In this document: one piece after another, positions 1-53,600 of the stretch
Layout of the letters: each line of letters begins with the position of its first letter
Numbering within the stretch: the first letter of the stretch is position 1
Assembly: GCA_965235115.1 (NCBI GenBank)
Contig: OZ249436.1
Coordinates: 35,466,001-35,530,000, forward strand
DNA length: 64,000 nucleotides
From: Laetmonice hystrix
Lineage: Eukaryota
Reading direction: 5' to 3'
Program-made: the position numbers and the translations under genes
The notes under the pieces: model-generated
What the model was told of the DNA's origin: nothing
Databases searched by the model: none
The model's input: the letters and a program-made list of their open reading frames with translations, nothing else

Positions 1-758
1 TATCATCAAGAGTTTGTCGTCAGCTTCCATCACCGGGCCAACGTATTTGTTCAGGTCTTGTTCTGCCTTGCTTGCCTTGGAGCCACCCGACACCCAATAT
101 CGTTTGAACCACATGCACACAGACAAATCAATGGCTTTCAATTTCTCCAGAGATTCATAGGATTTGGAAAATTGTTCAAACACGCTATCGTGCATCGCCA
201 ATGCCTGCCCAATGGTTTCCGAGACATGGATGCCGTCAAGATCCGTGATAATGTGTAATGGATCTAATAGTAAAGCGAGTTGTCCTAAGACATTCAAGCA
301 GGTTTGGTGGAAATGTATAGTGGAATAGTTACTCCAGGTATCTCGATAAAGATACGCGACCGTTTTGTGGTACATGCTAGTGAATTTCTTCAGTTTTCTT
401 GCCCCTATTTCCAGATCATGAATGGGCCTTGTTTTCATTGTGCAAATTCCGTATTTAAGGGTCTGGCATATGCTAAACTGCGGCGGGGGCGATATGGTTG
501 GGAAGTAGTTCACGTTTGATTCAGGGGGATTTTTAGATCTTCCATCATCCATCCAACTATTATCCTCCTCTTCCTCCCCTGACGAATCGAAATCTTGACC
601 CTCGTCCGGTCTGGGCGGCGGACGCTTGTCTCTATCACCGTACAGGTTTGGTGGACCTGTCATCGACGGCTTGTGACGCATTGCCGTCACAGGGCAGGCT
701 TGGTCAGCTGGAATCACCACAACATGGCAGGTTTTCATTGATGTGGCGCTGGTTTGGC

Positions 759-799
<41 letters not shown>

Positions 800-2588
800 G
801 GTGTTGTTGTGGATGTTTGAGATGTTGATTGGGATGTCGTGGGTGCTTTTGTCGTTGGGCTCACTGTAACTGGTTGCGTAGATGTCGTTGAGAGGGACGG
901 CATTGGAGTGACAATAACCACTGGAGACGTACTGCTAATGGTTGTAGATTTGGCGCTTGTTGATTGTAAGGTACTTGACGGTAGGGGGTTATGGGTGAGC
1001 GTTGGCGCCGTACGCAGGGATGTTGTCGTGTCTCTAACTGAATAATCAATGGTTGGTGGGGCAGCCAGTGTTGTTTTATCGAGTATGTCATGTGGATGTG
1101 TTCCTGAGGTTGTTGTCACAGACGCTGGAGTAAGATATGTTGTCTGGTCGCCGGAAGGACCTGAAGCCCCGCTAGAAAGCCAATACGGGTCCATTCGGGT
1201 AGTCTCACCGACTGGGGTAAACACATGGTACGAGGTAAGGCTATCAAGAGTATCTCCTGAACTGTCGTAGTCGGTGGAGATCCAAGAGTCACCACTCCAC
1301 GCTCCAGAAGTGTCCCATGACATATCGGACATGACGTCACTATCAGGGTACGCACTGGTAGGTATATGTGACAGGGTGTCACTTGTCACCCAAGAACTTC
1401 CCTGACTGGTTTCCCCTGGAACTTGACGTTTATAGCGTTGATGACTCTCTGGTGGTCCCTCCATATTTTCTGGTGTTCCATTTAGTGGTCCTTCTGGTGT
1501 TCCATGCGGTGGTCCCTCTGGTCGTCCATCTAGTGGTCCCTGATCTGGTGGTCCATGCGGTGGTCCCTCTGGTGGTCCATCGTGTCGTCTATCTGGTGGT
1601 CCATCTGGTCGGCCGTCCGATGGCCTCCGTCTAGGATGACCATGTGGAGGGTGATTGTGGTCCAATCCGTCGTGGCCCCTATGGTAGTCGGCACCACGGT
1701 CGGGATCCCCATGGTAGTCGGCACCACGGTCGGGATACCCATGGTAGTCGGCGCCACGGTCGGGATCCCCATGGTAGTCGGCGCCATCGCCGGGGCTGCC
1801 GTGGCCGTGACCGCCGTGACCGGCACCGCCGTGGTCGTGGCCGGGACCGCCGTGGCCGGGACCGCCGTGGTCGTGGCCGGGACCGCCGTGGCCGGGACCG
1901 TCGTGGCCGTGGTCCCCATGGCCGTGGTCCCCATGGCCGTGATCGTTGGGCGGCGGTGAAAGGAAACGTTTCATGTCGGAATCGTCACACATGCCCATAG
2001 TTCCATCATCCCCTTGGTAGAATCTTTCGGACATATCTAACTCTCCAGTATTAATGCAAGTGCTAATTACTTCCTTCATGCTTGTGAAGCTGACAGGATT
2101 ATAGAATTGCTTATATAATTGCTCAAGGGCGTTTGTGATTTTGAGAATCGATGGTGGTTCTGGTATATTCTCTAAGTATTTCTTCTTCGCATCGACAAGT
2201 GGTGATTTGTGAGCCAAACTGGTATCAGTAAATGGCCCCCTTTCTTCACCCGTGATGATGTTTGGAATCTCAACGGTTGACGTCAGGGCTGCACCGTTCG
2301 ACAGGTTGACACTGTAATGGTACAGTACGTTGGCAAAGGCCTGGGACGCAGCCAGTACGCGGTCAAACTGGGTCCTATCAGTCAACGCTGTTATCTTGAT
2401 GACTTTCTGAGAAATCTCCCTGGCCTGCAAGAATTGTTCCTTCGTCCGGTTCTTCTTAACCTTATCAAGTAATGCTATTCGATCAACGTTTAAGGTAGAG
2501 ATGGTGGTTGATGACAGTCGTGGTGCGTAGACGACCCTTCGACAAGGTAAACTGCAGGAACAATTGCCTGATTGAAATGTGCTTTCAC
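1..2588 (-). CDS. Channel gene giant exon 11 (end of thumb plus a >800-aa insert; open past the window edge)
   Basis: cttctctttcag| ESTFQSGNCSCSLPCRRVVYAPRLSSTTISTLNVDRIALL... I read the frame to position 1 without meeting a stop. It is missing from the ORF track, probably because it has no stop inside the window. Confidence 0.88.
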
Positions 2589-5500
2589 CTGAAAGAGAAG
2601 ATCACGTTATATTTGACCATGAATCAGTGTGCATGAGTTTATGAGTCTATTTGTCACAGAAAGGGTTTGGTATTCAAAATGAGACCATGACCTTCTTGAA
2701 CAGATAGAACTTTATTATCGGTCAATCTCAGTGTTAGTATGATTTGATCAAGGAGATGGTATAGGGCTAACTCACGTTGGCTGGGTAGAATGCACTGAAA
2801 TTTATCTTTCATCGAGCATATTGGCGCATCTCCTGCAACATAAAACCACACGATCTTGTAAAACACACTTGGTGCTTAGTTTAACATTAAGTTCTGTTAA
2901 GATACACACTATTATTGTACACACCAGCCCGTATCCCCATGTAATATTACACAATGTCATGTGAGCTGCGTTAGTGAGTGTGCATACATTAAAAAAATTA
3001 AAACCTTGGCGTTTGAACAAGAGGGGTTGATGGCTAACAGCCCATGTATAGGCTGACGTAAGATGTCCTGGGAATGATTAAAACACGTGTACTCACCTAC
3101 CATATATATGTCCTTGCATTTGCACCTTTCTATGGCATCCCTTGATTCACATTTAAGTAGGCAATCTCCCCGGGAAGGTGCTCCGCTGACACAGGTACCG
3201 TATGGATCTTCTAGATTTGTTATCTGTTACACATATACTTTATAACACGCTGCGGAAATACCGTCAGACAAGAGTGCAATTATTTGACCGTATTACATTG
3301 TTAGCGCGCAGTGTCATGCAGTCCCAGTTTATTTAAACGCAATTTGATCTCGATTCGAATAATTAAAGAATTTTAGAGGGAGCACATCTGTTTTAAGTAC
3401 ACGTTTTTATGCATTATGCAGTCGGCTTCGAATCATTTACATCAAGATATAAAAACTCGGCTTCGAATCATTCAAACCTATTGAGCTCCCTTCGAGATAC
3501 AATATCCACTAGATGTACTAAAATGGTGTACTACTAAACGAAATAATTTCGGAAGCAAGCAGCCATTCCTCCCACCTCTTTACGGCCTATGGCGACTAAT
3601 GTATGAAATCCTGGTGAAGCAGCAAAGCCTTGATCTCTGATACGTGGTGTATCGGACGGATTGTGTAAGAACACCTGAAAAAAGTTTTATTTTTTGGAGC
3701 TAATTAGGGAAAAGTGATTTTGGCTCACCCTGTCGTAAGCATTCGTATATTTATAAGAATCTTTTTACCTGTAAGATCCAACAATGTTTCGGCGTGGCCA
3801 AAAAAACCAACCACTATTTTAAAGTAACTAATTACAATGCCTCAGTGGGATAATTGTTAAAATTTTTAGATTTTTTTATTTTTTACCCCTTTTTCAGATA
3901 TGTTGCAAATGTGCTACATTGGGTTTCAGTTTCAAAACTCGAATCCAGGTTTGTCACATACATTTCTTTGTAAGATCTATTAGATCTTTACAAACAATAA
4001 AAAACATGGGCTATACCCGGGGGAGCTATGTTTTTAAAAAAGTTTGTTTGCCGGGGGGTCTGGGGGGCCTCCCCCAGGAATTTGTTGCAATACAATTTTG
4101 CTGTTGATGTTGGAAATTTAGCTGAGGTAGCTGCCCCGGCTGCCTCACTGCATTTTACGGCCCTGTATACAACGGGTGCCACATGCCTCTACTGGGGGGG
4201 GGGGGGGGGGTCCGGGGAATTTTTGTTTGTCCTTGTATGACAGAGGGACAGGGGGCCCCCAGATTAAGTTTGCCCCAGCCCCCTCACACTTCTTAATCCA
4301 GCACTGCTGCTGCTACTACTACTATTACTAGTACTAATACTACTATGACTACTGCTACTACTACCACCCCCAATCTGATAAGATGGAATGACTATTATAT
4401 AGTATACGCCCTAATACCAGATTAGCATAGGCTGACATTTGGACATTCATGACAATGAAGACCCAAAGTTGCATTTCTGCAACATCACAAAAACTTGTTG
4501 CATCCAACACTAACCAGCCACTTCAAAAAATATAATCAGATCTGCAGAATCTTGACTCTATAAAGAGTATGTATGAATTTTATTGGAGACTTCACTCACA
4601 TAAGATGCTTAGATAGTTCATGAAATTGTCGGACACTAACCTGCACACGGATACAGCCATCTTGTTTTGGGTGTCATGGCTAGTTCTATGAATGTCTCAC
4701 AGATGGCAGCACAATAGTGTGCATTTCTACAACGTTGGGTTTTCGTGGATATAATTCAGGGTTGATTTCACCACAGTGATATAATGCCCTTGGGCTGGAC
4801 CCCCGGGAAAATTTGTTGCATATTTGCAACAGGGGGTCTTACAGGGTTTTAGACAGATCAATTGAATTTACCTTGATACCGGTATCTTCCTGGGGGCCTC
4901 TCATGTATTGGTACTGCTCCACGTTAAGTACTAGGTGAAGGCCTGCTCCAATGCCTTTGTAAGGAATGAAGACTCAGGTTTACATCAGGTTCTTTTACTG
5001 AGCGTGCTACTAGCAGTTTACTACATTTACTAGCAGTAGGCCTAGATTGTTTCACCTGATGTCATCCTTCTGATGTCATCCTTATTTATTATTCGTGTAA
5101 GTATACCAATTTACATGTTATGCCATGTCTGCCCATACACTCCCACTCCTAGAGCCTGTATTCACTCCCAGACAGTTAAACTTCCCATCATGGCCACTCA
5201 CCGGCGCCAGTTGCATTCATTTGACGTTTAGGATCCGAGTTGAACGTATAACATATTCCCATGTCAGTGACAGATGTATTGAAATTTGTTGTATCGTAAA
5301 CCTTACCACGCCACTTACATCTACAAAAGGCAGGGTGATCATCCGCAGATTATCAACGTATATAGTAACCACCACTTCAAGACAAAGCGGTCATTCGAAT
5401 TAGGCCTCGCTAGTGGTCGCAATAAACCAATGCCTTTACAAGTCTCCTATCAGGCCGCCCTCCCCATTTTTTCATGGATTTAATTATGGTTGCAATAAAC

Positions 5501-8367
5501 TTTAGATTTCCTCTGATTATAATCACTGTATCATGCATGTCTCCCTTCCTGAAAGCTGTGCGCACTTTTTAATATTTTGTCAGATATATAGGCATTGGTA
5601 CATTTTCGCCGGTCGCTATAATAATATGAGTGTGATTATACAATGGTGATTTCTATCGTCGACCGTTATAGACTTACGAGTCGATGAAGTCCAAACGCTG
5701 GTGAGCGGACTGATGAAGAAACTCTGAAGTGTTGATGTGCGAGAAGTTGCCGAACAACGTCAGGTCTGGTTCTATGTATAATGTGTAAAAGGTACATGGA
5801 TACGTTGTGTCAAAATGAACAACTTTGCACACACTCTAGGGATAGCACTGCTTTGTTCAGAGAACGTGATCACTAAATGAAACCCATGAGTTGAAGATCA
5901 GAAACAGGAAACCACCCGGCAGAGATGTACAGGAAGACAATTTTAGAATTATTCGGCCCATAATCCCACAGATTTAAACCTGAGCTTTCCTTATGGATGA
6001 CAAAGTCGGTGGAGGTCGTTGTATATAGACACGGCGATTATTACCGGAGTTTCCAAACACACTATCCAGGTAGTCATAAACGCCGAAATTATTCGCTTCA
6101 ACTAAACTGAAATGAGGGGAGAATTCCTAATTATGTTCAAATTAATATCAATTCTATTTCTTTTCATATATTCGATAAGTTTCACATACAATGCTGTAGG
6201 CCGACATCTAGCTGTATCAATCCCATTAAGACCTTATTAAGACTTCAACTTATCCATTAGATTCTAAAGTAAAACATTATAAACGGAATTAAAATAAAGG
6301 ATTATTTCCTGGCGAAAATCTCCTTTCAATGTGTTCATTCGACTGAAACATTATGCGCCTGAATTGTTAAATGAGATATTGTATGATCTTACCGGAAATT
6401 ATTTTGATTGCATATGGTGACGGCAGGGAAAGGCACGCCTGCCTGGGAATAGACCATCTCCATGTTGACGCTGGATTCACGTTTAAAAAAGTCATGGGTT
6501 CTCCAACCAACCCACACTCCGAACATAATCACAGCTGTCATAACACATGTAAACCATGCCGCCCTGCAGACAAAAGGTACGATTATAACACATGTAAACC
6601 ATGCCGCCCTGCAGACAAAAGGTGCGATTATAACACATGTAAACCATGCCGCTCTGCAGACAAAAGGTACGATTATAACACATGTAAACCATGCCGCTCT
6701 GCAGGCAAAAGGTACGATTATAACACATGTAAACCATGCCGCTCTGCAGACAAAAGGTACGATTATAACACAATGTAAACCATGCCGCTCTGCAGACAAA
6801 AGGTACGATTATAACACATGTAAACCATGCCGCTCTGCAGGCAAAAGGTACGATTATAACACATGTAAACCATGCCGCTCTGCAGACAAAAGGCGCGATT
6901 ATAACACATGTAAACCATGCCGCTCTGCAGGCAAAAGGTACGATTATAAAACAACTGGTGAAGTGATGCTGCATTAATCTCGACAGCCTAAAATAATTTG
7001 TTTTTCTGTCAAATCTCTTTCCTGCGAATCCGAGGACTGCAAGTCTATTGATCGTAGTAGTTTTGTTTGGACATTTCCGGTTTATGTGCAGATAAATAAT
7101 GTATACTAAGCCTCTGTAGACCATGTCAACAAATACCATAGGGGTGTATGGATATTTCGAAAATCGATGACAGATCAAGAAGTTCAAAGCTAAAAATTAG
7201 AGGGGAAAAGTTAAGGTACTTGCCTCCGAATGCCAATAGGCTTGTTATCAAATATATATTTGATGCCATGGAAAGTTGTACTTTGTGTAAACTCGTTCCA
7301 AGATATGACCTCCTCAGGCTGTAGATCTATGTCCGCCTCGGGCCGAGTTGCCCCTGGCTGAGCTGTCTCTGGTGGAGTCTCCACTGGTTTGTTTCCCTCA
7401 GGTCGAGTCACATCCGGCCAAGCGAGGTTAACCTTCTCGGGTTTTGTGTCGCCTTCCTCCGCTGCCCTGATATGAAAGATGAAGAAAGTTATTATGTATA
7501 TCTGATAGGATGAAACCTATTAGTACGCTGGTATCAGCATGTTGGCAGATTTCGAGTCCTAATAATACCCCCATATATCGGGTGGGCCAAAAGAAATTGA
7601 AACACTGTAATATTTGGAACATGATATCATCTGCAAGCCTGTTCCACTAAGCCCGAAAGACGTCTTTGAAATGGTCGCTGAGCCCAAAGAGGTCTTTGCG
7701 GCGACGGGTGTTCCACTAAGTTCCTATTCTTTAACATTGGCCCCGCAAAGACGTCTTTCCGTTAGTGGAACGGACGGTATGACGTGACGTCAAATGTATG
7801 AAATGCCCTATGCCAAAAACTGGTGGCTAGTCCCGACTTAAACCCCATGGGCACCATTTGGGATCCCCTGTCTGAAAAAGTCAATAAAGATCGCAAACAA
7901 AAATTCGCCGAGAACGAATACTATTAACCATATAACATGATGCCCTAAATATCAGTGACAAACTATGAAAATTGTAGAAGCTATAGTCAAGTAAACAGTG
8001 TTCCAGACACAGCGGGGCCAACTCTGCTGAGGACGCCTGGTCCGGCATTGCAAGTTTTGCAGTTTTTAAAATGACCCTATTTTTAGACAATTTGACCTAT
8101 TCATCTGAAATTTGTACCATGCACAGGCCCCAATTAACCAGATGATAATCATGTTCCAAATATTTTGACATTGGGGGTAAAAATTATAGATGTTACAGTC
8201 AAGAAAAGAGTCGAGAAAAGAAAAGAATAGTTGGGCGATTATATGCAACATTATGTAGGAAATGTTATGAATACATCTAAGTAGTACATTCTATTTAAGA
8301 GTAGCCAATATTGTCCGTTTTGTATCAAGGTCTATACTTACCTGACGAGAATCTCCCTTGCAGACAT
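1..8367 (-). CDS. DEG/ENaC/ASIC-family amiloride-sensitive-type cation channel subunit with a giant extracellular insertion (3' end, including TM2, outside window)
   Basis: Manual splicing join(8367-8342,7466-7224,6563-6393,6106-6045,5771-5678,5320-5202,4954-4872,3674-3576,3223-3097,2832-2776,2588-<1) gives 3669 nt = 1223 codons with all intron phases matching. Family motifs: FTQSTTFHG (pre-TM1 HG), TM1, FPAVTICNQN, GICYTFN, GLHLVLNVEQ, GFAASPG, PYGTC..C...C..CKC thumb, CSCSLPC....Y...LS. Confidence 0.93.
2776..2832 (-). CDS. Channel gene exon 10 (thumb)
   Basis: ttttatgttgcag| GDAPICSMKDKFQCILPSQ |gtgagt. Confidence 0.92.
3097..3223 (-). CDS. Channel gene exon 9 (Cys-rich thumb)
   Basis: gtgtaacag| ITNLEDPYGTCVSGAPSRGDCLLKCESRDAIERCKCKDIYMV |gtgagt. 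Confidence 0.92.
3576..3674 (-). CDS. Channel gene exon 8
   Basis: cttttttcag| VFLHNPSDTPRIRDQGFAASPGFHTLVAIGRKE |gtggga. Confidence 0.92.
4872..4954 (-). CDS. Channel gene exon 7
   Basis: ccttacaaag| GIGAGLHLVLNVEQYQYMRGPQEDTGIK |gtaaat. Confidence 0.92.
5202..5320 (-). CDS. Channel gene exon 6
   Basis: ccttttgtag| CKWRGKVYDTTNFNTSVTDMGICYTFNSDPKRQMNATGA |gtgagt. Confidence 0.92.
5678..5771 (-). CDS. Channel gene exon 5
   Basis: atacatag| EPDLTLFGNFSHINTSEFLHQSAHQRLDFIDS |gtaagt. Confidence 0.88.
6045..6106 (-). CDS. Channel gene exon 4
   Basis: cctcatttcag| LVEANNFGVYDYLDSVFGNS |gtaata; phases fit both neighbours. Confidence 0.8.
6393..6563 (-). CDS. Channel gene exon 3 (TM1 and FPAVTICNQN)
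   Basis: ttttgtctgcag| AAWFTCVMTAVIMFGVWVGWRTHDFFKRESSVNMEMVYSQAGVPFPAVTICNQNNFR |gtaaga. The 5' boundary is ambiguous because the acceptor is tandemly repeated. Confidence 0.9.
6541..6947. repeat. 45-bp tandem repeat x9 spanning the intron 2/exon 3 junction
   Basis: Unit TAACACATGTAAACCATGCCGCYCTGCAGRCAAAAGGTACGATTA starts at 6541, 6586, 6631, 6676, 6721, 6766 (one extra A), 6812, 6857 and 6902. Confidence 0.97.
7224..7466 (-). CDS. Channel gene exon 2 (cytoplasmic N-terminus and HG motif)
   Basis: Acceptor tttcatatcag|; encodes ...WNEFTQSTTFHGIKYIFDNKPIGIRR; ends at a GC donor, AG|gcaagt. Confidence 0.9.
7641..7771. mobile_element. Small hairpin/MITE-like element in intron 1
   Basis: GTTCCACTAA...TTAGTGGAAC terminal inverted repeat with subterminal AAAGACGTCTTT palindromes. 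Confidence 0.45.
8342..8367 (-). CDS. Channel gene coding exon 1 (MSAREILVR)
   Basis: ATG at 8367; strong CAG|gtaagt donor at 8342/8341; phase 2 matches the exon starting at 7466. Confidence 0.7.
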
Positions 8368-9820: not shown

Positions 9821-11515
9821 TCACTGTGCCTGTAAATCAACTGAACTTGACCAGATCTGGCGGGCATCAGATAATATCTTGCCGAACACGTCGATTTCAA
9901 ACTTGCCGAGTTGCTTCCGAAATCCCCGGTTGGGGTCGATAATGGGGCGCCTCTCCTTGACGAATAAATAGGAATCTTTCAGCGACATCCGCCTAGTTAA
10001 CATAAGATAGGCAATCACCACAGTGGAACTGCGACTTGCTCCAAGGTTACAGTGTACTAGAACAATGCCCTTGTCGGCAATGGCATCCTGGATGAACTGT
10101 ATGGCAGCGGGTAGTTTGGATAGAATGTCAGCACCTGCCTCGTCGTTCACCTTAACATTGTGGTATTTTATTTTGTCCTCAAACGCATTAAAGTGTTCCT
10201 TTGTGATATTCACAATATGCGATATCTTAAGGTCCGTGACAATATTCTCATTGGCTGCTTGGTCCCCACGGCCCAGATATAGGTTGTGAAGAATTGCTGA
10301 GGGATATTGGACTAGAAGTTTCTGACGTTCTTTACCTGTGCAAACTACTCGATCATTACATAAAAACGGAAACGCCGTGTCAAAGGCTTCAAAGCCACCT
10401 TGAAGGATCATGGGCGCCACACGCTTACCCTGTAGGTGTTCCACTGTGACACTCAGGGTGCTTTCCGTGAGAGAATGGGTAAGTCCGTTGTTATCGTACA
10501 CCACGATCAGACTGTATTCATGAAGAGGCAGAAGTTGGTCGTTCCGGTCAAGCTCTTCCACATGATATGACGTGGTTATGTGGCTGTTCCGGTACAGCCC
10601 TTCGTCTCGTGTGTCTACAATCAACAGACACGACGGGTCGAACAGGTATGGACTGAGCTGTCCGTCGGCCATCTTGTTGTATAGCTGCGTCACTGATATC
10701 GTGCCGTCATCCTGTGTTAGAGACGCGCGGTCTGACGTGAAAGGTCCCAGAACACGACCTGACACTCGCCCCACTGAGGGTCCGTGACTAGAGCCAGCCG
10801 ACAGGGCTTCCATTGACGTCTGCGTTCCGTCAGCTTCTGATGAAGACGTCATGACGTTATCGAATGAAAACTTTGGGCGGTTAATCTCTCTGCAGGATTG
10901 TCCCAAAGCCTGTGTGGGAAGACGTGCATCTAATGGTAGGCCTATGGGAGGTAGGTTCCATCGGTTAGACAGAGCTACGTCAGCGGCAGGCCGTGCAGGT
11001 GGCGGAACCGGAACTGCAGACGCCGGCCCAATGCGGCAGCTACGTCCTCGCTTAACCTTTCGCTTGGTCACCTTTTCTCCAGTTTCCCCTTTGGGCTTGC
11101 AATCTTTACCTAAATCAGTGATTAAACCCGGAGAAATCTGACAATAAGGCCTAGGCATAATCTAGGCTTAGACTCTGGCATTAAAATGCAGTTTATGGAA
11201 GTTAAAATAGGGATAGACCTATCATCAAAAATGTAAGCTATAGGCCTAATACTCATAGGCCTACTTAATGAGAGCTTCTAATGAAGACCTTACACAATTA
11301 AGTTCTAGGAATATCAAATGTAGTAAAATGTCAGTTTATTTTAATAGGCTAAACTGTGCATGCAGGATGCTAGACCTAGACCGATAAGTCACGTACGTAT
11401 CTCAATACGTCGGTCTAGGCCTACTAAATACTGGTCTACAGGCCGGTTGTCATACCTTCAAGGTCGTCCTCCGCCGCGAAGAGTGTTTGACGCAAAGGAA
11501 CACGAGTGATTGCAT
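9821..11515 (-). CDS. STYXL1: STYXL1 (MK-STYX)-like rhodanese/CH2 plus dual-specificity phosphatase with an intact catalytic motif
   Basis: ORF 9821-11158 contains TQLYN..., LLIVDTR...SHITT, IVVYDNN, ILQGGFEAF, QYPSAIL..LYLG, DLKISHIVN, VLVHCNLGASRSSTVVIAYLM and PNRGF..QL..FE..VFG, collinear with STYXL1 as I recall it. Likely model: join(11515-11456,11137-9821), using AAG|gtatga and cttattgtcag|ATT, phase 0. Confidence 0.82.
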
Positions 11516-17440: not shown

Positions 17441-19425
17441 CGTGGGATGTATACGGCCAGGTCTGGGCCGGGGGTATAGGCAGCAGTGGGATGTACAGCC
17501 AGGTCTGGGCGGGGGCAGGGCAGCAGTGGGATGTACGGCCAGGTCTGGGCGAGGGCAGGGCAGCAGTGGGATGTACGGCCAGGTCTGGGCCGGGGATAGG
17601 GCAGTGGGATGTACGGCCAGGTCTGGGCCGGGGATAGGGCAGTGGGATGTACGGCCAGGTCTGGGCGAGGGCAGGGCAGCAGTGGGATGTACGGCCAGGT
17701 CTGGGCCGGGGGTAGGGCAGTGGGATGTACGGCCAGGTCTGGGCCGGGGGTAGGGCAGCAGTGGGATGTACAGCCAGGTCTGGGCCGGGGGTAGGGCAGC
17801 AGTGGGATGTACGGCCAGGTCTGGGCCGGGGATAGGGCAGTGGGATGTACGGCCAGGTCTGGGCGAGGGCAGGGCAGCAGTGGGATGTACGGCCAGGTCT
17901 GGGCCGGGGGTAGGGCAGTGGGATGTACGGCCAGGTCTGGGCCGGGGGTAGGGCAGCAGTGGGATGTACAGCCAGGTCTGGGCCGGGGGTAGGGCAGCAG
18001 TGGGATGTACGGCCAGGTCTGGGCCGGGGGCAGGGCAGCAGTGGGATGGACGGCCAGGTCTGGGCCGGGGACAGGGCAGCAGTGGGATGTACGGCCAGGT
18101 CTGGGCGGGGGCAGGGCAGCAGTGGGATGTACGGCCAGGTCTGGGCCGGGGGCAGGGCAGCAGTGGGATGTACGGCCAGGTCTGGGCCGGGGGTAGGGCA
18201 GCAGTGGGATGTACGGCCAGGTCTGGGTGGGGACAGGGCAGCAGTGGGACGTACGGCCAGGTCTGGGCCGGGGACAGGGCAGCAGTGGGATGTACGGCCA
18301 GGTCTGGGCGGGGGCAGTGCAGCAGTGGGATGTACGGCCAGGTCTGGGCCGGGGGTAGGGCAGCAGTGGGGTGTACGGCCAGGTCTGGGCCGGGGGTAGG
18401 GCAGCAGTGGGATGTACGGCCAGGTCTGGGCCGGGGGTAGGGCAGCAGTGGGGTGTACGGCCAGGTCTGGGCGGGGGTAGGGCAGCAGTGGGATGTACGG
18501 CCAGGTCTGGGCTGGGGACAGGGCAGCAGTGGGATGTACGGCCAGGTCTGGGCGGGGGTAGGGCAGCAGTGGGATGGACGGCCAGGCCTGGGTGGGGACA
18601 GGGCAGCAGTGGGATGTACGGCCAGGTCTGGGTGGGGACAGGGCAGCAGTGGGATGTACGGCCAGGTCTGGGCCGGGGGTAGGGCAGCAGTGGGATGTAC
18701 GGTCAGGTCTGGGTGGGGGCAGTGCAGCAGTGGGATGTACGGCCAGGTCTGGGCTAGGGACAGGGCAACAGTGGGATGTACGGCCAGGTCTGGGTGGGGA
18801 CAGGGCAGCAGTGGGATGTACGGCCAGGTCTGGGCCGGGGGGAGGGCAGCAGTGGGATGTACGGCCAGGTCTGGGCTAGGGACAGGGCAACAGTGGGATG
18901 TACGGCCAGGTCTGGGCGGGGGCAGGGCAGCAGTGGGATGTACGGTCAGGTCTGGGCCGGGGGTAGGGCAGCAGTGGGATGTACGGCCAGGTCTGGTCCG
19001 GGGGTAGGGCAGCAGTGGGATGTACGGCCAGGTCTGGGCCGGGGGTAGGGCAGCAGTGGGATGTACGGTCAGGTCTGGGCCGGGGGTAGGGCAGCAGTGG
19101 GATGTACAGCCAGGTCTGGTCCGGGGGTAGGGCAGCAGTGGGATGTACGGCCAGGTCTGGTCCGGGGGTAGGGCAGCAGTGGGATGTACGGCCAGGTCTG
19201 GGCCGGGGGTAGGGCAGCAGTGGGATGTACGGTCAGGTCTGGGCCGGGGGTAGGGCAGCAGTGGGATGTACGGTCAGGTCTGGGCCGGGGACAGGGCAGC
19301 AGTGGGATGTACGGCCAGGTCTGGGCCGGGGACAGGGCAGCAGTGGAATGTACGGCCAGGTCTGGGCCGGGGGTAGGGCAGCAGTGGGATGTACGGCCAG
19401 GTCTGGGTGGGGACAGGGCAGCAGT
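17441..19425. repeat. G-rich 38-41-bp minisatellite, roughly 50 copies
   Basis: Consensus GTGGGATGTACGGCCAGGTCTGGGCCGGGGGTAGGGCAGCA. Confidence 0.98.
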
Positions 19426-19620
19426 GTACCCGAGTGATCGACGTCACGCTCACCACAGTAATGGCGCTGCGCGGATATCATGAAGATTGCGACAGGAATT
19501 CGGCAAAACACTCTCCAGAATTTTTGTTTCAATTTGAAACTTTACCAGTTCCTTCTCAATATCATGACCAGGGATCCCAGGTAGCGATATAAGGTCATAT
19601 TTGGCAAAGTACTGGTTTAA

Positions 19621-22422: not shown

Positions 22423-22560
22423 GTAGGAGGTATAAGTCAATGAATCAGTAGAATATATTCTGGACCATACCGTAGGAGGAATAACTCAATGAATCAGTAG
22501 AATATATTCTAGACTATACCGTAGGAGGAATGACTCAATGAATCAGTAGAATATATTCTA
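22423..22560. repeat. 49-bp tandem repeat x~3
   Basis: GTAGGAGGAATAACTCAATGAATCAGTAGAATATATTCT... at 22423, 22472 and 22521. Confidence 0.9.
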
Positions 22561-28500: not shown

Positions 28501-28671
28501 TCTTCATTTCTTTTCTGATAATCACAAAGTCCTTCTATCTGTAATAGGGTGGCCTTTCGCGTTTTGTGGTTTATGGGTCCAATTCAAGGCTGTAGATGAA
28601 CGTTGTAATGAAGAATGACCAGATGCCACTTACACAACAGGACTTAGTGGGGGAATTAACGGAGAGTTGAA

Positions 28672-29270
28672 GGCATAGCGTTATCCGGGACCCTACAGAT
28701 GTTGATTGTTGTAGACCTATCGTTATCCGGGACCGTACAGATGTTGATTGTTGTAGGCGTATCGTTATCCGGGACCATACAGATGTTGATTGTTGTAGGC
28801 ATAGCGTTATCCGGGACCCTACAGATGTTGATTGTTGTAGGCATATCGTTATCCGGGACCCTACAGATGTTCATTGTTGTAGGCATATCGTTATCCGGGA
28901 CCCTACAGATGTTGATTGTTGTTAGCCTATCGTTATCCGGGACCGTACAGATGTTGATTGTTGTAGGCCTATCGTTATACGGGACCCTACAGATGTTGAT
29001 TGTTGTAGGCATATCGTTATCCGGGACCCTACAGATGTTCATTGTTGTAGGCATATCGTTATCCGGGACCCTACAGATGTTGATTGTTGTTAGCCTATCG
29101 TTATCCGGGACCGTACAGATGTTGATTGTTGTAGGCCTATCGTTATACGGGACCCTACAGATGTTGATTGTTGTAGGCATATCATTATCCGGGACCGTAC
29201 AGATGTTGATTGTTGTATAGGCATATCGTTATCCGGGACCGATTGTCGTAGGCATATCGTTATCCGGGAC
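28672..29270. repeat. 42-bp minisatellite x~14 with a 4-unit higher-order repeat
   Basis: Unit ATGTTGATTGTTGTAGGCATATCGTTATCCGGGACCCTACAG; the variant pattern recurs with a 168-bp period. Confidence 0.96.
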
Positions 29271-32200: not shown

Positions 32201-35200
32201 CTCATGTATAAATCTTTACAACTTTACATATTTGTAACATACTCACCTGTGTGGAGTTTTACAGTCCCTATATGGGACACTTGGTCAGTCTTGATGGCCC
32301 GCGGCTGGTCTTCTAATATTAGTACTCGTCTCTTACCATTTTATTATATATAAACCAATTACCCCAGTATACAGGCCTCCCGGGCCAAAACATTACCATC
32401 CTCACAATGCAGAACAACCTTTATGATCCTCTGGCTTCCTTTCTCGGCGTCCCTTTAAGGCACAGATCACAGCCTAATGACTCCACAATGAGGATGGTAT
32501 AGTCGTCACATCTAAGACCGCACGGCATTGGGCTGATGTTCTGTCTGACTTTTATTGCCCATATATGGTACGCCGAAATTATATTAAGGCTGGTCAGTTT
32601 ACAGCAAGAAGGCGAACAATTGAAATCACATCGACGTGCCTGAATGTGGCCCATGACGACCGCGGGTTTATAGGGCGCGTAAATATATCAGTGGTTGCTT
32701 AGTGACAGGCCAACTTTGATGTCTGAATGGAAGACATCTTTGAAATGTTTGTTTCCATCTGGTGGAACATTACGTTAAGTGGACCTACCGCAAGCACTTT
32801 ATTACCATTCCAATCGCACAGGTTTGCTGAAAAGTGTCCGGCAGCCGGCATGGCAATTGAAATGTAGGCCTAGACCGACATGACTGGGTTCGGATAATTC
32901 ATTTAACCTCCCTTTCCTCTCCAGTTTGCGTCACTGCGATCATCATTATATTCCCGTGCACCCAGCCAGGACATTGGAACACCCACAGTTCCCCTGGAAT
33001 CATTCATCATTTTGTTCCCGTGAAAGCTACCTTTCAGGCTTATCATTGGGCAACTTTATAAGGTAATTGTGGAACGTACATTCAACAATGTCAATACTTT
33101 AAAACATTTGCCTTTGTGTCTTCTTTCGAGCGAGGGTTCGCCTCCTCGGGGCAGACCTGTGACAGTGGGCGTCAGGGGGACTAAATAGGTGGTCTCATCT
33201 CTTTCAAAGCTTTCAAAGGTCAGCTTGGGGGGGGGGGGGGGGGGCAGTTGACATCCAACTTGATCAAGATTCTATGGACGGTTGCATCAGAGTGTGACGC
33301 GGTCTAGTAGGTTCTCGCGACGGTCGCGACACACGGACCTATAGCTCCTACAGTGGGGGTGCAAGGGAAGGTTGAGGGGGGGGGGGGTACCTGGGGTTCC
33401 TGGTCCGTCTTGATCAGGCCGGTAGAGGTGACTCTATTTATTACAACCAGTAATAGGCTTGTTGCCTACTTTGATTGATCGTTGGCATTATGTCTATTTT
33501 GCTTGGCAGCGTTGCGTTGAACAGCAAGCGTGAATTCATATTCTTGCGGTCGTGGGGCTGGAGATGGTATGCGATGATTAGGGCGGGCGATCTTCACCCA
33601 CTGCTTGTTGTAAGGGCTCGTTAACGTTGGGTAAGTCTGGCCAGGGGTAAGGTAAATAGTCGGTATTGTGTCAAAGTGACAGTCCTACTTCATGGACTGT
33701 CACCGCAGTCACAGCAGTCACATTCCTCACCCGTCCCGCCTGTCCACCCCCCTGCCACCGACCACCCTCTCTCCCGACACCCTATACCCTCGATACAACC
33801 TCCCAACAATGAGTGCCATATCAAGCCAGAAGTATCAACCCTCCGCCCCCGACTCCAAATGAAGGCTCACCACAAGATCCCCTCCGTCTGCCTGTAGGCT
33901 CATCGCAATGCGACCCAATACATTTTAAAATTAATTGTCCCCTCCTTGTTGTGGATTTAATTGAGAAAGGCAACCACCGATCACTTCAGACCGACTTGAT
34001 CCCTCCATTGTGTAAAATCAGACCCTACAATTTGGTCCTCGACGACTTACTGATAGCCACCAACTGTGCGGGGTCGGTTGATAAACGACGCAAAGGTAGA
34101 ATCCAAGCCACCGATCATGTAGTCCGGCATTCCCAGCCCCCCACAAACAACAGGCATGTGTGTCTAGCCACCGATCATGTAGTCCGACATTCCCAGCCCC
34201 CCCCCCCCCCAACACACACATACAACAGGGGCCTGTTGCATAAACAACAAAGATCAGATTTTTCATGAACAACGACAGTAGACGTTGCATAAAAAATCGT
34301 TCTTGTTCTACGACGTGTCGTAAGTTACGATACCCCGAAATCCTCCAGAATCTGTTGCATAAAATTTTCGTTGTTCTGACGGTGTCGTTCAATGTGTCTT
34401 TATTCCCTTTTCACTGTCGTAAATTACGAACACCAAAAAGGTGTTCGTTAAATCCACCGAAAGTCTAAAATATTTTTGGGGGGAAGGAAAACAGTCATGG
34501 AACGTCATGGGAGAAGACGACGGTTCTTTTCACATATAGATCCCGTCACATACTTCGACTCGGAGCAGTTTATCCGTCGATATCGCTTAGATAAGCAGTC
34601 GGTGGTTTGGCTCAGCCTGGCCTTTGCAGTCCGGCTCCTGCTCTACCGCAGGAGACCGACGCGGAGGGGGGCTCACCGCACAACAACGGGTATAAATATC
34701 ATTTGTTTACATTTCAAAATGAGAAAATTAAGTAAAGACTTAAAATGAATCAAAGTAAAGACTCTACTGTTATAGAGGAATATAATTTAATGCCAGCATA
34801 TGCCCGAAATCCTCCAGAATCTGTTGCATAAACTTTTCGTTGTTCTGACGATGTCGTTTAAGGTGTCTTTATTCCCTACCTGTTTTATAAACATAGGCCC
34901 ATATGCCTAAAATAGTAGGCCTAACCTATATTTTTCACTTCAACTTAGATATTTTTTAACACTACACTAGTTAGTATTGGATAAGTGTGGCCTATACATG
35001 GACCTTTGGGTCCGGGGGGGGGGGGGGGTTTAGACCCCCCCCTCCCCAGCCAGCCCCCGGTTACGGGCCTGAGTACTAGTTTTAGAGGAAAAGAATGAGG
35101 GGCGGGGTCACCCATCAATTTTAAAGGTTACAGCCTGGTAAACATTCAGCGTCTTGCTGAACATGGTGATGTGGTAACAACGCGCGGTACTGGGTGGCAC

Positions 35201-35920: not shown

Positions 35921-36212
35921 CAGGTCAGGGGTCACTGAAACGGCAGTAGGGAGGATCCAGGGTGTGGCAGAGGTTGAATGAAGTGAACGATCTCTGTCAT
36001 GGAGAGTGCTGCCAGCCAGCACCTGGCCTAACATAGCGGATGCGTCTGGTAGGCAGGGGACCAGGCTACGACAGAAAACATCGTTCCAGCAAGAAATCAA
36101 CGATGGACTTTATGCAACAGAATCTACGACATGTCGTTACCATTGTCGTACGGTCAACGAACATCTACCCATTTTTCGTTATTGTACTGTCGTTGATTGT
36201 GCAACAGGCCCC

Positions 36213-36630
36213 AGGCCCGTGTGTCAACTCTAGCCACCGATCATGTATTGCAACATTCCCAGCCACCTCCCACACACAACAGGCCCGTGTGTCAACCCTA
36301 GCCACCGATCATGTATTCCAACATTCCCAGCCACCTCCCACACACAACAGGCCCGTGTGTCAACCCTAGCCACCGATCATCTATTTCAACATTCCCAGCC
36401 ACCTCCCACAAACAACAGACCCGTGTGTCAACCCTAGCCACCGATCATGTATTTCAACATTCCCAGCCACCTCCCACACACAACAGGCCCGTGTGTCAAC
36501 CCTAGCCACCGATCATCTATTCCAACATTCCCAGCCACCTCACACACACAACAGGCCCGTGTGTCAACCTTAGCCACCGATCATGTATTCCAACATTCCC
36601 AGCCACCTCACACACACAACAGGCCCGTGT
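36213..36630. repeat. 68-bp tandem repeat x6, with two diverged copies at 34105-34228
   Basis: Unit AGGCCCGTGTGTCAACCCTAGCCACCGATCATGTATTCCAACATTCCCAGCCACCTCCCACACACAAC. Confidence 0.95.
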
Positions 36631-38813: not shown

Positions 38814-40036
38814 GGCTGGTTATCCCTGTACCGAGACGACGAGCTGGTTATCCCTGTACCGAGACGACGAGCTGGTTATCCCTGTACCGAGACGACGAGC
38901 TGGTTATCCCTGTACCGAGACGACGAGCTGGTTATCCCTGTACCGAGACGACGAGCTGGTTATCCCTGTACCGAGACGACGAGCTGGTTATCCCTGTACC
39001 GAGACGACGAGCTCCCTGTACCGAGACGACGAGCTGGTTATCCCTGTACCGAGACGACGAGCTGGTTATCCCTGTACCGAGACGACGAGCTGGTTATCCC
39101 TGTACCGAGACGACGAGCTGGTTATCCCTGGTTATCCCTGTACCGAGACGACGAGCTGGTTATCCCTGGTTATCCCTGTACCGAGACGACGAGCTGGTTA
39201 TCCCTGGTTATCCCTGTACCGAGACGACGAGCTGGTTATCCCTGGTTATCCCTGTACCGAGACGACGAGCTGGTTATCCCTGGTTATCCCTGTACCGAGA
39301 CGACGAGCTGGTTTTCCCTGGTTATCCATGTACCGAGACGACGAGCTGGTTATCCCTGTACCGAGACGACGAGTTGGTTATCCCTGTACCGAGACGACGA
39401 GCTGGTTATCCCTGTACCGAGACGACGAGCTGGTTATCCCTGGTTATCCCTGTACCGAGACGACGAGCTGGTTATCCCTGGTTATCCCTGTACCGAGACG
39501 ACGAGCTGGTTTTCCCTGGTTATCCATGTACCGAGACGACGAGCTGGTTATCTCTGTACCGAGACGACGAGCTGGTTATCCCTGTACCGAGACGACGAGC
39601 TGGTTATCCATGTACCGAGACGACGAGCTGGTTATCCCTGTACCGAGACGACGAGCTGGTTATCCCTGTACCGGGACGACGAGCTGGTTATCGCTGTACC
39701 GAGACGACGAGCTGGTTATCCCTGTACCGAGACGACGAGCTGGTTATCCCTGTACCGAGACGACGAGCTGGTTATCCCTGTACCGAGACGACGAGCTGGT
39801 TACCGAGACGACGAGCTGGTTATCCCTGTACCGAGACGACGAGCTGGTTATCCCTGTACCGAGACGACGAGCTGGTTATCCCTGTACCGAGACGACGAGC
39901 TGGTTATCCCTGTACCGAGACGACGAGCTGGTTATCCCTGTACCGAGACGACGAGCTGGTTATCCCTGTACCGAGACGACGAGCTGGTTATCCCTGTACC
40001 GAGACGACGAGCTGGTTATCCCTGTACCGAGACGAC
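38814..40036. repeat. 28-bp minisatellite, about 40 copies
   Basis: Unit GAGCTGGTTATCCCTGTACCGAGACGAC; some units carry an extra CTGGTTATCC. Confidence 0.98.
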
Positions 40037-43000
40037 GGCCAAGTTTTACCACATTTGATTTGTGAGTGTATAATCCACTGAGTCGGTGGGAGAAAAAGAA
40101 GAGTAATTGATATTTGCCGAACACGGGATGTCAACCGGCTGAGTGTCTGCCGATGGTAAAATAGTCACGTGTCTGTCTATACCACATTCTGTAAATGATA
40201 CTGTCGCTATAGGATCCCTAATTATATTCTGATTTACTTTACTCTGGGTTTTTTTAACCACTATTCATTGGCATTAGTTATATGCTTGATTTCACTTCCT
40301 GTATGCATTCTGTATAGAGCAAAACATGTTGCGCCGCATACAACGGCTCCCCACAGATCTGTATCTAACTGTGTACACTATACCTACACTATATATACAG
40401 TGTGTTGTTTTAAATCAATTGACACCAAGTAACGATAATGAAATTAATATTTCGAGAAATATTTTTCTAGTTCGTAGAACAGCAGTGTAAGTAACTTAAC
40501 ATGACATATATTTGGCGGGTTTGACCTATTGTATAGGATGCACATATTTCAGGAATATTTCTCGCACCAGTGTGGTACAGAGTGGGCTGTTTCTCAAGTA
40601 AGACGTTGGAGGGATAACGTTACCCTGTATGTATATGTCTTGTATACGATATATTTCGTCTCGTCATTGATTGATGGTCGACGCCATGTTAGAAAACTAT
40701 CCGATCAACGCTTTTAAATGTGAATGGCTTTTTATTACCTAAGCGTATTGAGCAGGTAGATAGAACGAGGTCAAAGGTACAGAAATTGCATCGGCTTCTC
40801 AATGTCCGCCTCAGGCTGTGCCTCGTTTGACTGATGGGTGCAGGCTCTGAGGCTATGCCACCCAAGTCAATCCCCAGCCCATAGACTTTCTATATAATGT
40901 GGTCACCGAAAAAAGGAAATGACAACACAACCAAAAAGGTTGATGGTGAGGGGGCCTATAAAGGAAAAGAATTGTTCTGAGGGAGTCACGACACATACAT
41001 GTGTGCACATAATGATGACTGATATACTATAGGGCCATTATTGTTTATTTGGCTGTGTAGTGGAATTTTTTTTTTTTTTTTTTTTTTGGGGGGGGGGGGA
41101 ATAAAACATTGCAAATATTACGAGCGTTCAAAGGAACACAGTGCAGCTGGCGTTTGTCGTTACTATCTCGTATGTCGCTAATCATTCTCCTTCTTTTAAA
41201 TATTGTTCATCTCATTTTCCCTATTGATATATTCCTTCCCCTGCAGGTTCAAAACCTCTTTAGTTTCCGTTGACATTGTGCAATTATTGGATGTAATCGA
41301 TATAAAGAGTGTGAATAGGGTATCGGAGAATGGAAACGTCTTTTTGACGTATCACAGACGGGCTCGGACTGTCCGGACTCACAGGCATGTCGTACAGTAC
41401 CCTGGCATTAGGGTTCAGTCTCGTATATTACTCATGGTATACCAATATCATTTGGTTATCTCACAGGTCAATATATCCCTGTCTCTGGGTTCGGCCTTTG
41501 TTGCCCATAATATATCGGGTACTACTTTTGGGGTGTAATGAATCTGATGTAATAAAATCTGATTACACATGCTTTAAATCACTGTGAGTGTTAGTGAAGT
41601 ACATGTATCAGTATACCGCAGGTTTGAAATGTATAGCAGTTTCAAGAAAAGTTGTAGAATCGACAGCCGTGGGAAATCCATGCACCAGTTTGATTCATTC
41701 AATCCTATATGGTCGCCTTTCTCTGTAGAAACCTTTGGAGACCAATCAGGCCAGTACTTTCGCGTATATATACATGCACCTCCCCAACCCGCCCCCATTA
41801 GTTGGCATTACCAAACATGCAATGGCGTTTGCTGTACATTTAAACGGTCTGCTGGAATCTAATTGCGATATATACTTATTGTCGACTTCAAAGTCGAGAA
41901 CCGTCGCTCACAAACCAAACGACCTCTTTGAACCCGACAGTAGCGGACGTCGTATAAGCCCTTCATATGTCTGTCATCCCAAGTAGGTCTTCAGAAGTTA
42001 AATTAAATCTCAATCGGCACCGTGGAGCTGGAAGATGCGCTTTAGGATAAGTTGACAGGTAACAAGTGCTGGGATGGGGGCTGTTAAAGCGATGATTTAG
42101 AGGTGGTAGTCGTTGTTGGCGGGCGGTGCGGTGGGCTGACCTGTGGGTGGGCCACCCAGCCCCGCCACCCGGCCCACCTTTTATGTGGCGCAACGTGAAT
42201 TTTATTACTCTCTACCCGACTACTGATGAAGCGTGTGAAATATCATCATTGAAATGTATCCATTATTCACAGAGTTCGGCATCGTTACCTGTGCACGATA
42301 CTGAGAATAGCTTCGCACAAAGAAAGGATATAGCAACACAGCAGCAGACAACGATTAATACTATAATGGACATTTACATGACATTGAATCCTATAATGGT
42401 CACATGACATTGTTATACATGCATGATTATAATGACTTGTATAGGCCAGACATTATATAGATGATACATAAATTTATGTTCCTTTTATTTGTTATGTGAA
42501 ACATTTGTCCATAAAACCCCAACAAACTATCCTTCAATGAAAACACGCATATTTCCGCATTAATATAGCCTAAGCTGAATGTATATCCTTTTAGGTTTTA
42601 GGTGACAGGTTTCTAAAGGTGGATTTCGTACTCTGTTATTGACGTGTCCTTGCTACAGTTTACATGTACATGTATATGGCCAGTGGTGTCCAGTGAACCT
42701 CCGTCGAATCATGCCGTCATTATACCCAGTGATTTATGTTGTTTCAAAAGGTGCATCATGTCAAAAATACTATCTGTTCTAGCCACGTGAGATAATCATC
42801 TGGAAATGAATTTCGCTGCTTTCAATTACCTATATGTGGAAAAGAACGACTTCCATTCAAGCCAGTAAAAGCCCCTCTTAAAAAGAGAAAAAAGTAGCTT
42901 GGCTAACGTATTACTTGCTAACTTAAGACTGACTTTATAACAATAAGGTTTTAACCTGTAATGACTGGTTAGAATGCGTTAGCCCTATATTTATGAGTGT

Positions 43001-50179: not shown

Positions 50180-50640
50180 CCTCGACCTTGGTTATAATAG
50201 GTCTGTACTACTCCTCGACCTTGGTTATAATAGGTCTGTACTACTCCTCGACCTTGGTTATAATAGGTCTGTACTACTCCTCGACCTTGGTTATAATAGG
50301 TCTGTACTACTCCTCGACCTTGGTTATAATAGGTCTGTACTACTCCTCGACCTTGGTTATAATAGGTCTGTACTACTCCTCGACCTTGGTTATAATAGGT
50401 CTGTACTACTCCTCGACCTTGGTTATAATAGGTCTGTACTACTCCTCGACCTTGGTTATAATAGGTCTGTACTACTCCTCGACCTTGGTTATAATAGGTC
50501 TGTACTACTCCTCGACCTTGGTTATAATAGGTCTGTACTACTCCTCGACCTCGGTTATAATAGGTCTGTACTACTCCTCGACCTTGGTTATAATAGGTCT
50601 GTACTACTCCTCGACCTTGGTTATAATAGGTCTGTACTAC
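50180..50640. repeat. 33-bp near-perfect minisatellite x14
   Basis: Unit CTCCTCGACCTTGGTTATAATAGGTCTGTACTA. Confidence 0.98.
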
Positions 50641-53600
50641 TTTGGTCAATCCTTATCGTGAAGACAGATGTCTGATTCACAAATGAAATTTGTAATTTAA
50701 AGATATAAATGATAGGCGATCAGTTTTGCGAAGAATGGGATTTCTATAGTTATACTTTTTACATGTTTATGCCTTCTATATATGGACAAGGGTATACTAG
50801 GGCTAATGCCTTCTATATATGGACAAGGGTACCAGGGCTCTCGTATTTGTTTTTTGTTTCCTTGAAGGAACGTCCAGTATTATCTATTTCCCTTTCATAA
50901 ACACCCATCCATCAGGTCGAAACATGAGGACCATAGTATATGGGACATTTCCACTTGATATACGGGTGTATATATGTTTACTGGTGTACATCGACCTCAC
51001 AGTGTGTACATATATCCATTATACAGGCATCATTCAACAACATACATTTACCTTTCTTCATGTTTCAGTTTTTATCTTCAATTGTGTACGTTTACAATGT
51101 ATAATATAATATAACGAGCTGCACATTTTTCAAAGTTTTATGTGACATGTAGGTAAATTAAGCGTGAGGGTATGCCATGGGAAAAACATACTCTGATATA
51201 AAATCACTTTCTCTTGTCAGACTTGTGGGATGTTTATTCATTGTCACTATTATAGCGAGGCGATGCATACTATTATGACGGCCATCTTGTAGTAGGTTGG
51301 TCGCCGATAAAGCTACTATATTAGTACTATATACACAATGTGCTCCAGGACGGTTCTGTGATAGAAGCACGACTTTTACCCGGCCGCCGTGTGTTGTGGG
51401 CGCGGGGCCCATATGGAGAGGCCGACAACTTTATTGTATCGAGTCGTGTAATAAGTAGTCATCAACCGACCCCGGGCCCGCGAGCATCAATCATCTCCTT
51501 ATCGCTCAAGTTGCTATTAGCTTGGCCCAGAGAAATACAGTTGAATGTAAACAAGCGCCATGGTTAATGCATGCAGATATATCCGACGGCACTCACCTTT
51601 GAACTCAGTCTTCATTGTAGTTGGCGAGTCGCGAAAAGAGATTTTAGCGGCACTCAAGAGCATGATAATGGGTGGATATTGGGGCCTTGTTGGAGGGGCA
51701 TGTTGGGGCCACCCGCCCTCCCACCCCGCCCTCCGTACCGGGAGAGATATTGGAGGGTTCTCTCTCTCTCTGTAAGCACAGACTCTCGGAGATACTGTAG
51801 GCCGTTAGTGTCGGATAATTAAATTGCCAACGATCGGGGCGGGCAAGAGTTTGACGTTTTGTTTATTAAACTGGTGCCAAAGCAAATATGCGCATCACTG
51901 ACCCTTAACTGTTGGCCTAATTAAGGCTTCAAGGGTCCATGATGCATGCGTGATCCTGTCCAGTGTGACAAGTGCAGTGCTTCTTACAGTGTACTACAGC
52001 GTATGTATGCAATGTGGATATATATGGCCTGGCCATTATATAAACAAGTTCAAAATAAACTATTTATTTTCCTCTCAGACGTAGAGACTGGCCTGGCATA
52101 ACATATTAGTTATCCATGAGCGCGATTGAGTGATAGTGACGGGTGCATGGCTATATAGGAAATAGGAAAGACTAAGCAGGAAAACAAAGCACTGACACTG
52201 AGGGCTTTCTCAGTCAGTAGTAGGTCCCCTCATGTGTTGCTTCACGACAGCTTAGAGAGGGTAAGTTATTCGCGTATTTCTTCTACGAGACGTTTACAGT
52301 GTGAAATGCTATTAAAATTGTATGTGGGAGGTGTGCGCCAGTTGTGGGGCCGTCGCCGAGTCCGCACCAAGGGACCGGCAGCCACGTCGACGGTCGTCAC
52401 CTCGCCGGGCCTGCAGGCGCGGCGACCGCCGTCTCTCGCCCCGGGACATGCCCCGGCCAGGCACGCCAGCGCAGCCGCCAAGACCGACACCAACTTCGTC
52501 CAGGTCCACCCTCGCATTTGTGAAAGCCATCTTTCGACTCTGTCAGCTGACGGTCAATCAATATGTAGCTCGTGGCTTGTGCTTGCAGCCGATTTGTATA
52601 TAGAAATATTGACTTATTTGTTTAGTATATGCGACACATTTTATTAGCGTGTTGTTCAAACCTGGCCTGATGATAAGTAGGATGAGTGGTGGGACATTAT
52701 TATAATATACTATAGCATATTAGGTATGGCCAAGGGGCCTATATTTACTCATTAAGATGGCAATTGAATATTGTTCACAGTAGAGGAGGTAATATATCAA
52801 TATAAAGAAGCCAAGGTGTAACGACTTTTATTTGATTTTCATACGGAAATACTGGCTGTCTTCAGTTTTGGCACTAACTATAGGGTTAAAAACGTGCGAA
52901 TGGGGCGAACGTGGCAGTGCGCCATTATGCCGAAAGGTGAAAATTAAACTGACACCGTGCCACGTTTGAAGCCCCTTTCTCGTGGCAAGGTACCATATAT
53001 ACAGTTATGGCGACTCCTAGAGACAGGAGGGACTGTGTGGACATAATTAATGTCGCTATAGCTCACTTACAGACCAGCCCGGAGGTCACTCTGGAGTGTA
53101 TCTCAAAGTATACACGGCCGAGTGAGTTCTGCAGTGTCCGCCCCACGTCCAGCGCTCACCAACTGTATAGCCCTGTTACTCTCCACCTCCACACTCAGGC
53201 AAACCAAACGAGGATCTAGCGCCAGACAACGCCAGGCGCTTCCAGGCCGCCCCTAATGAAAATTAAGCTAATCATTTTGCAGATTTTATTTATTCGGATG
53301 TGTCGATATACAGCGAACACGAGTAATGCAGCGCAATCTGGCGGCGAGATCAGGCGGAGGATTAGGCACGATTCCGTTCTCTCATTAGTATGCATGGGCC
53401 AGCGACAGCCATTATGCAAACTACATACTTGCTTACACACCACATGTCAACTCACAATCCCCGCAATTAGCTCAACCATAAAATTTGATGTTTGTAAGCC
53501 ACTAATTAATCTCTATCTATGAAAATGCGAAGTGACAGCTATCGATCAATTTCCATGCACGCTGCCTCGGCCAGGATGCTTGCCGAATTAATAGACAGGC

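Follow-up and report, generated by a model that had tools for sequence, protein, structure and literature searches.

The splice acceptor at the start of exon 3 of a DEG/ENaC channel gene was found to be repeated nine times in the annelid Laetmonice hystrix, within a minisatellite of 9.2 copies of a 45-bp unit (TRF, 95% matches) at 6540-6953 on the minus strand of the 64,000-nucleotide stretch of contig OZ249436.1 that was analyzed here (the window). It is probable that the 3'-most acceptor, at 6563, dominates with little leak to the other copies, and that the array is a near-neutral by-product of repeat instability. Judged by its sequence, the array fits the structural definition of a mirage minisatellite, namely tandem units that lie across an exon-intron border and repeat the splice signal: its units are arranged head to tail, they span the boundary of the host exon, and a splice signal is present in nine of nine copies.

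The host gene, on the minus strand, encodes a DEG/ENaC channel and is intact, an 11-exon model running from 8367 to the window start giving 1221 codons without a stop. The Pfam ASC domain, the HG (His-Gly) motif that precedes TM1, TM1 itself and a Cys-rich extracellular domain are all present; the gene extends past the window start, and TM2 lies outside the window. A putative first coding exon (MSAREILV, 8342-8367), followed by a GT donor, was placed by its frame and Kozak-like context. Exon 2 (7224-7466, 243 nt) was assigned by translation and alignment and encodes the motif as FHG. The unique part of intron 2 (6954-7223), delimited by translation and joined to a repeat unit in a short-read contig, begins with a GC donor (AG/gcaagt), and exon 3 (6393-6563, 171 nt when counted from 6563) carries TM1 and an FPAVTICN motif (Pfam ASC, E 2.4e-09, together with alignment). 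Exons 4 to 11 were modeled at 6106-6045, 5765-5678, 5320-5202, 4954-4872, 3674-3576, 3223-3097, 2832-2776 and 2588 to the window start, all on the minus strand. Pfam ASC matched two exons besides exon 3, and the TM1 region weakly matched solved ASIC structures (E 0.15-0.82). The introns are short, about 190-1200 nt, and one exon measures at least 2588 nt.

The relationship of this gene to other annelid channels was studied at the protein level. Channels of the same family (ASC, PF00858) from Dimorphilus (CAD5126520.1), Owenia (CAH1775107.1) and Capitella (ELT88608.1) are 34-37% identical to it over the N-terminal 290-390 residues, and share the HG motif, TM1, a Cys-rich thumb and a long extracellular insertion. 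The insertions in these relatives are shorter, however, while that of the host channel is much longer and of low complexity. It is encoded by exon 11 (1-2588, minus strand; at least 2588 nt); the very long insertion that this exon contributes to the extracellular domain holds repeats rich in His/Gly and others of Pro/Asp/Gly, a mucin-like tract rich in Thr, and the furin-like site RYKR. Exon 11 gave 58 protein matches, of which 18 were looked up, and the three with a species name came from Owenia, Dimorphilus and Capitella. The closest (P0074) matched at 52% over the first 200 aa, with a similar layout and the sequence RKKR. Word-index protein searches with exons 3 and 11 returned no match, Atlas matches were all under 0.9, and no Rfam match was obtained. 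The possibility that the repeat is itself coding in other frames or on the plus strand was rejected, as the ORFs at 6371-6775, 6453-6974, 6495-7196 and 6766-6987 contained no Pfam family at the curated cut-off.

Each unit of the array comprises the last 21 nt of intron 2 and the first 24 nt of exon 3, as read on the minus strand. An earlier reading of the sequence alone had described nine tandem acceptor copies with exon starts at 6924, 6879, 6834, 6789, 6743, 6698, 6653, 6608 and 6563, and this was confirmed both by TRF and by the hexamer CTGCAG, which is kept in nine of nine units on the minus strand. No further copy of the unit was found elsewhere in the window. The nine acceptors are nearly alike, with 1-3 differences over 37 bases, and a pyrimidine tract and candidate branch points are present in each unit. 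The first base of the exon is G at 6608 and 6563 only and A in the seven upstream copies; G is the commonest base at this position in the channel gene (6 of 10 acceptors). The two 3'-most units differ from the seven others in this base, but the differences are too few for a tree. Intron 2 would measure 299 nt if spliced to 6924 and 660 nt if spliced to 6563.

The consequences of using each acceptor were explored by translation from the donor at 7224. Joining to any of the acceptors from 6563 to 6743 gave a stop-free product with 0-4 extra 15-mers, for example AAWFTCVIIVPFVCR, so that the four in-frame decoys (6608, 6653, 6698 and 6743; 6564-6743, minus strand) lengthen the stretch from the HG motif to TM1 by 15-60 residues. 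Hydropathy confirmed that these residues are hydrophobic, as had been proposed. The four remaining decoys (6789, 6834, 6879 and 6924; 6789-6924, minus strand) add 226-361 nt and lead to a premature stop. The shift was traced, in agreement with the same proposal, to a single extra base in the assembled sequence at 6772-6773 (AA on the plus strand, TT on the minus strand), within the unit that follows acceptor 6789. In the frameshifted products the stop codon lies 99 nt ahead of the exon 3/4 junction, and because a stop more than 50-55 nt ahead of an exon junction marks a transcript for NMD, transcripts from 6789-6924 are predicted NMD substrates. The arithmetic behind three possible outcomes (a normal, a TM1-extended or a frameshifted product) is therefore right at the level of translation. 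A GT lies four bases downstream of the GC donor of intron 2 (7218-7224, minus strand), at 7220, and competes with it. Rescue of the frameshifted acceptors by this GT was rejected, as none of the nine acceptors is in frame with it.

The reality of the array was addressed using three short-read runs from one sample, possibly the source of the assembly itself. None was recorded as RNA, and their contigs cross introns without joints, as DNA does. Depth over the unit was 512, 619 and 161, against 50, 58 and 28 over the adjoining flank, which makes it 6-11 times deeper in all three runs, and in one contig a unit continues into the unique intron sequence beyond the array. The sequence-only reading had named an assembly artefact as the outcome that would undo it; the array is present in the short-read contigs, and so it is real. 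That the whole of it arose in assembly, an explanation for which no supporting point was found, is extremely improbable in view of the depth in all three runs of this one sample and of the contig that joins unit and intron. The single unit contigs reached 8.0, 5.1 and 5.5 times the single-haplotype depth, and the assembled haplotype alone predicts about 3. This excess suggests that both haplotypes carry an array, and the depths hint that the units of the two arrays differ somewhat, depth not being the same as copy number.

The extra base at 6772-6773 was considered separately. It could be that it is a consensus error of the assembly, in which case all nine acceptors would be in frame and the silencing branch would vanish, an outcome compatible with the dominance of 6563. 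The change is a single-base extension of a homopolymer within a repeat, and it is absent among the four indels listed from the contigs. However, 23 further records lie beyond those listed, the contig comparison spanned 4800-6590 and so covered the terminal unit only, and contigs drop rare paths and variants. Each haplotype holds a single occurrence of the 30 k-mers that contain the extra base, next to paths 3-6 times as deep, and its absence from contigs is therefore expected either way. Taken together, a consensus error retains a modest chance of being correct. Two further features were seen in the same comparison. At 4800-4848, where there were loose ends, depth was some ten times that of the flank; a dispersed repeat within intron 7 has its edge here. 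At 6124-6277, in intron 3, 10 letters and one gap separate the haplotypes over 155 bp, indicating a highly heterozygous individual.

Homology was used to identify the authentic acceptor. The product of splicing from 7224 to 6563 aligned without gaps to the Dimorphilus channel P0128 from the HG motif through TM1, while the alignment of the four-unit extended product with P0128 broke in two. Only the combination of GC donor 7224 and acceptor 6563 gives the HG-to-TM1 spacing that is normal for the family. Because only its product aligns gap-free with P0128, 6563 is identified by homology as the authentic acceptor. Acceptor 6924 does adjoin the unique intron sequence, as the sequence and the unit table bore out; this does not make it the real acceptor, however, because the pyrimidine tract and candidate branch points recur in every unit. 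Selection of 6563 by RNA structure was also rejected: no structure favoring it was found, predicted pairing being similar at all nine acceptors (mean unpaired probability 0.22-0.40). Since sequence hardly separates the nine, position must decide between them.

The most likely interpretation of these data is that the spliceosome would pair the 3'-most acceptor, 6563, with the strong donor of exon 3 across a 171-nt exon; the exon would be 532 nt long if it began at 6924. The eight upstream copies, each with its 24 exon bases, would then leave with the intron, and the channel would be made normally. Such leak as occurred would mostly reach 6608 and 6653, and NMD would remove transcripts spliced to the four far copies. 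Such behavior has parallels. Lancelet mirages are reported to leave splicing undisturbed (PMC3087553; PMC3902484). Among human donor arrays, the site adjacent to the exon is described as the only one used in F7, LMNB2 and PDGF, and in IFI6 and CBS it is used together with the two nearest copies (PMC1557585). Duplicated beta-globin acceptors were spliced in vitro to the distal site only (PMC5389562). By analogy with the human arrays, leak in the channel gene should favor 6608 and 6653 over the frameshifted copies, as a mirror image of IFI6 and CBS.

Several points stand against the dominance of 6563. Where human acceptors compete, the upstream one is on the whole preferred, and this preference is no more than reduced once the introns on both sides are longer than 250 nt (PMC9225289); the nine acceptors of the array are near-identical; and duplication of the beta-globin acceptors made splicing inefficient in vitro (PMC5389562). 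In addition, intron definition is conceivable in the channel gene, because its introns are short, one exon is at least 2588 nt long and the first acceptor lies 299 nt from the GC donor. Were the GC donor paired with 6924 in this way, mainly frameshifted, NMD-degraded RNA would result and the haplotype would be null or hypomorphic. The short introns and the huge exon, the upstream preference of human acceptors and the frameshift at 6924 all speak for this outcome, which is nevertheless very unlikely indeed. The reading frame is intact, the array is apparently on both haplotypes, the published mirages splice normally (PMC3087553; PMC3902484), and the differences between the haplotypes tell against a dead gene.

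These differences were counted from the 40 of 45 variants found, all within 4800-6590, 10 of which lie in exons. Nine of the 10 exonic differences were synonymous, against an expected 21-28% (p 7e-6 to 8e-5), which shows that purifying selection has acted on the channel gene over the time scale that these haplotypes represent. The count bears only indirectly on splicing, and part of that selection may be older than the array. Splicing forced to 6924 would ruin the protein, either by the frameshift or, without the extra base, by 120 added hydrophobic residues. The second outcome being equally ruinous, the gene should by then have disappeared from any population with arrays of this kind.

The role of the decoys in tuning TM1 was weighed next to that of silencing. 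If use of 6608 and 6653 were leaky and allele-dependent, a sizeable minority of subunits would carry 15-30 additional hydrophobic residues before TM1, and the array alleles would behave as a splicing QTL for channel dose. In favor of this, 6608 is the only decoy with a G at the first exon position like the authentic site, the unit length is divisible by three, and hydrophobic residues are what it adds; in IFI6 and CBS splicing does reach the two nearest pseudo-sites (PMC1557585), and repeats that alter splicing are described as widespread in humans (PMC10078293). However, the hydrophobic reading of the 15-mer simply follows from copying the start of the TM1 exon. Moreover, the insert parts the HG re-entrant loop from TM1, a spacing that is kept in P0128, so the products are more likely to be dead than tuned. 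In ASIC1 the re-entrant loop that contains the HG motif forms the lining of the lower pore and supports the GAS constriction (PMC7308080). Because the inserts fall between this pore-lining loop and TM1, loss of function or poisoning of the trimer is, by analogy with ASIC1, more likely than graded tuning. On balance, leak of this kind is unlikely.

A more elaborate proposal is that the array forms a heritable dial on channel dose. In-frame leak would yield trimer-poisoning, TM1-extended subunits, the one-base insertion would protect its allele by diverting the four intron-proximal copies to NMD, and array length and insertion together would constitute a splicing QTL under selection, in a channel with a sensory or neural role. 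This was judged very unlikely. There is no support for the broader suggestion of the sequence-only reading that acceptor choice varies and either tunes TM1 or silences the channel, because the gene is under purifying selection despite an array that seems to be on both haplotypes, and because published cases of a like kind splice normally or leak only to one or two adjoining copies.

The origin of the array was explored at its edges. An intron-side 8-mer, TGTTTTAT (6946-6953, minus strand), is identical at seven of eight positions to the exon-side TGTGTTAT (6540-6547), and with the array collapsed the distance between them is one unit. The pair is the likely seed of the first duplication, to judge from this arrangement. 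In the simplest account, slippage between the 8-bp near-repeats, 45 bases apart and flanking the border of intron 2 and exon 3, would have duplicated the acceptor, and slippage or unequal exchange could then have expanded the array to nine copies. As a repeat, the array itself is far beyond chance. The window contains nine arrays with units of at least 28 bases and at least 2.5 copies (TRF), and with 21 mapped junctions the chance that one or more arrays would straddle a junction is about 0.11 (p). No selective explanation is needed, because straddling of the junction is compatible with chance.

The remainder of the window was also surveyed. At 9824-11161 on the minus strand, some 1.5 kb upstream of the channel, lies a single-exon ORF of 446 aa that combines rhodanese and dual-specificity phosphatase domains (Pfam DSPc, Rhodanese) with an intact HCxxGxxRS motif; its best matches are 46-53% identical, with Branchiostoma proteins at 43%. 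A homeobox gene of the Unc-4-like type (Atlas lead 0.85) has its last exon at 61808-62755 on the minus strand, with the acceptor of that exon at about 62755, and about 50 kb without a detected gene separate this exon from the phosphatase. Six further minisatellites were recorded by TRF, at 17442-19426, 22423-22560, 28666-29240, 36212-36630, 38815-40037 and 50180-50641 (units of 28-68 bp, up to 49 copies), among which 42-bp and 33-bp units contain acceptor-like or AG/GT-like words. No host exon was found for these arrays, as none of the 137 ORFs of at least 72 aa in 11200-64000 reached the Pfam cut-off, a length at which small exons would escape. The idea that the other arrays of the window are further mirages was rejected, as no host gene was found. 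A short ORF at 34452-34745 on the plus strand shows some resemblance in its wording to the start of a Harbinger-type transposase; it gave no Pfam match.

The array was compared with known systems. Amphioxus mirages are described in Adh3, troponin C, the globins BflGb6 and BflGb9, and PGBD5 (PMC3087553; PMC3902484), where tandem units likewise span an exon-intron border and repeat the splice signal. In BflGb6 the polarity is the same as in the channel array, the 3' end of the intron being followed by the 5' start of the exon, with 3-6 units; the 45-bp unit falls within the 10-72 bp range given for Adh3; and boundary units are said to differ from inner ones, as the two 3'-most units here may also do. 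The channel array differs in having an annelid rather than a lancelet host, a unit that is a multiple of three and lies in a TM1 exon, one unit with an extra base, and an intron with a GC donor. In the human splice-site VNTRs F7 IVS7 (37-bp), CBS IVS13, IFI6 (6-16), LMNB2 and PDGF, an authentic splice site is similarly reiterated in the neighboring intron, and the exon-adjacent site is dominant, with leak confined to the nearest copies in two genes (PMC1557585). Those are donor arrays, however, whereas in an acceptor array each unit must also supply a pyrimidine tract and a branch point. Engineered duplications of the 3' splice site of the Reed and Maniatis type also set near-identical acceptors in competition, the upstream ones with a truncated piece of exon (PMC5389562; PMC9225289); but these comparisons concern two sites in vitro or human transcriptome statistics, and the channel array has nine sites in an invertebrate gene. 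No report of such arrays in annelids was found in the literature searched, which left most subscription papers outside.

If the array is neutral, its main use is as an invertebrate system in which nine acceptors compete naturally, so that acceptor choice can be assayed by counting outcomes by frame and peptide. As a mirage, it is also a warning for gene prediction. Its importance would be raised only by RNA in which leak into a membrane-spanning segment of the channel differed between alleles.
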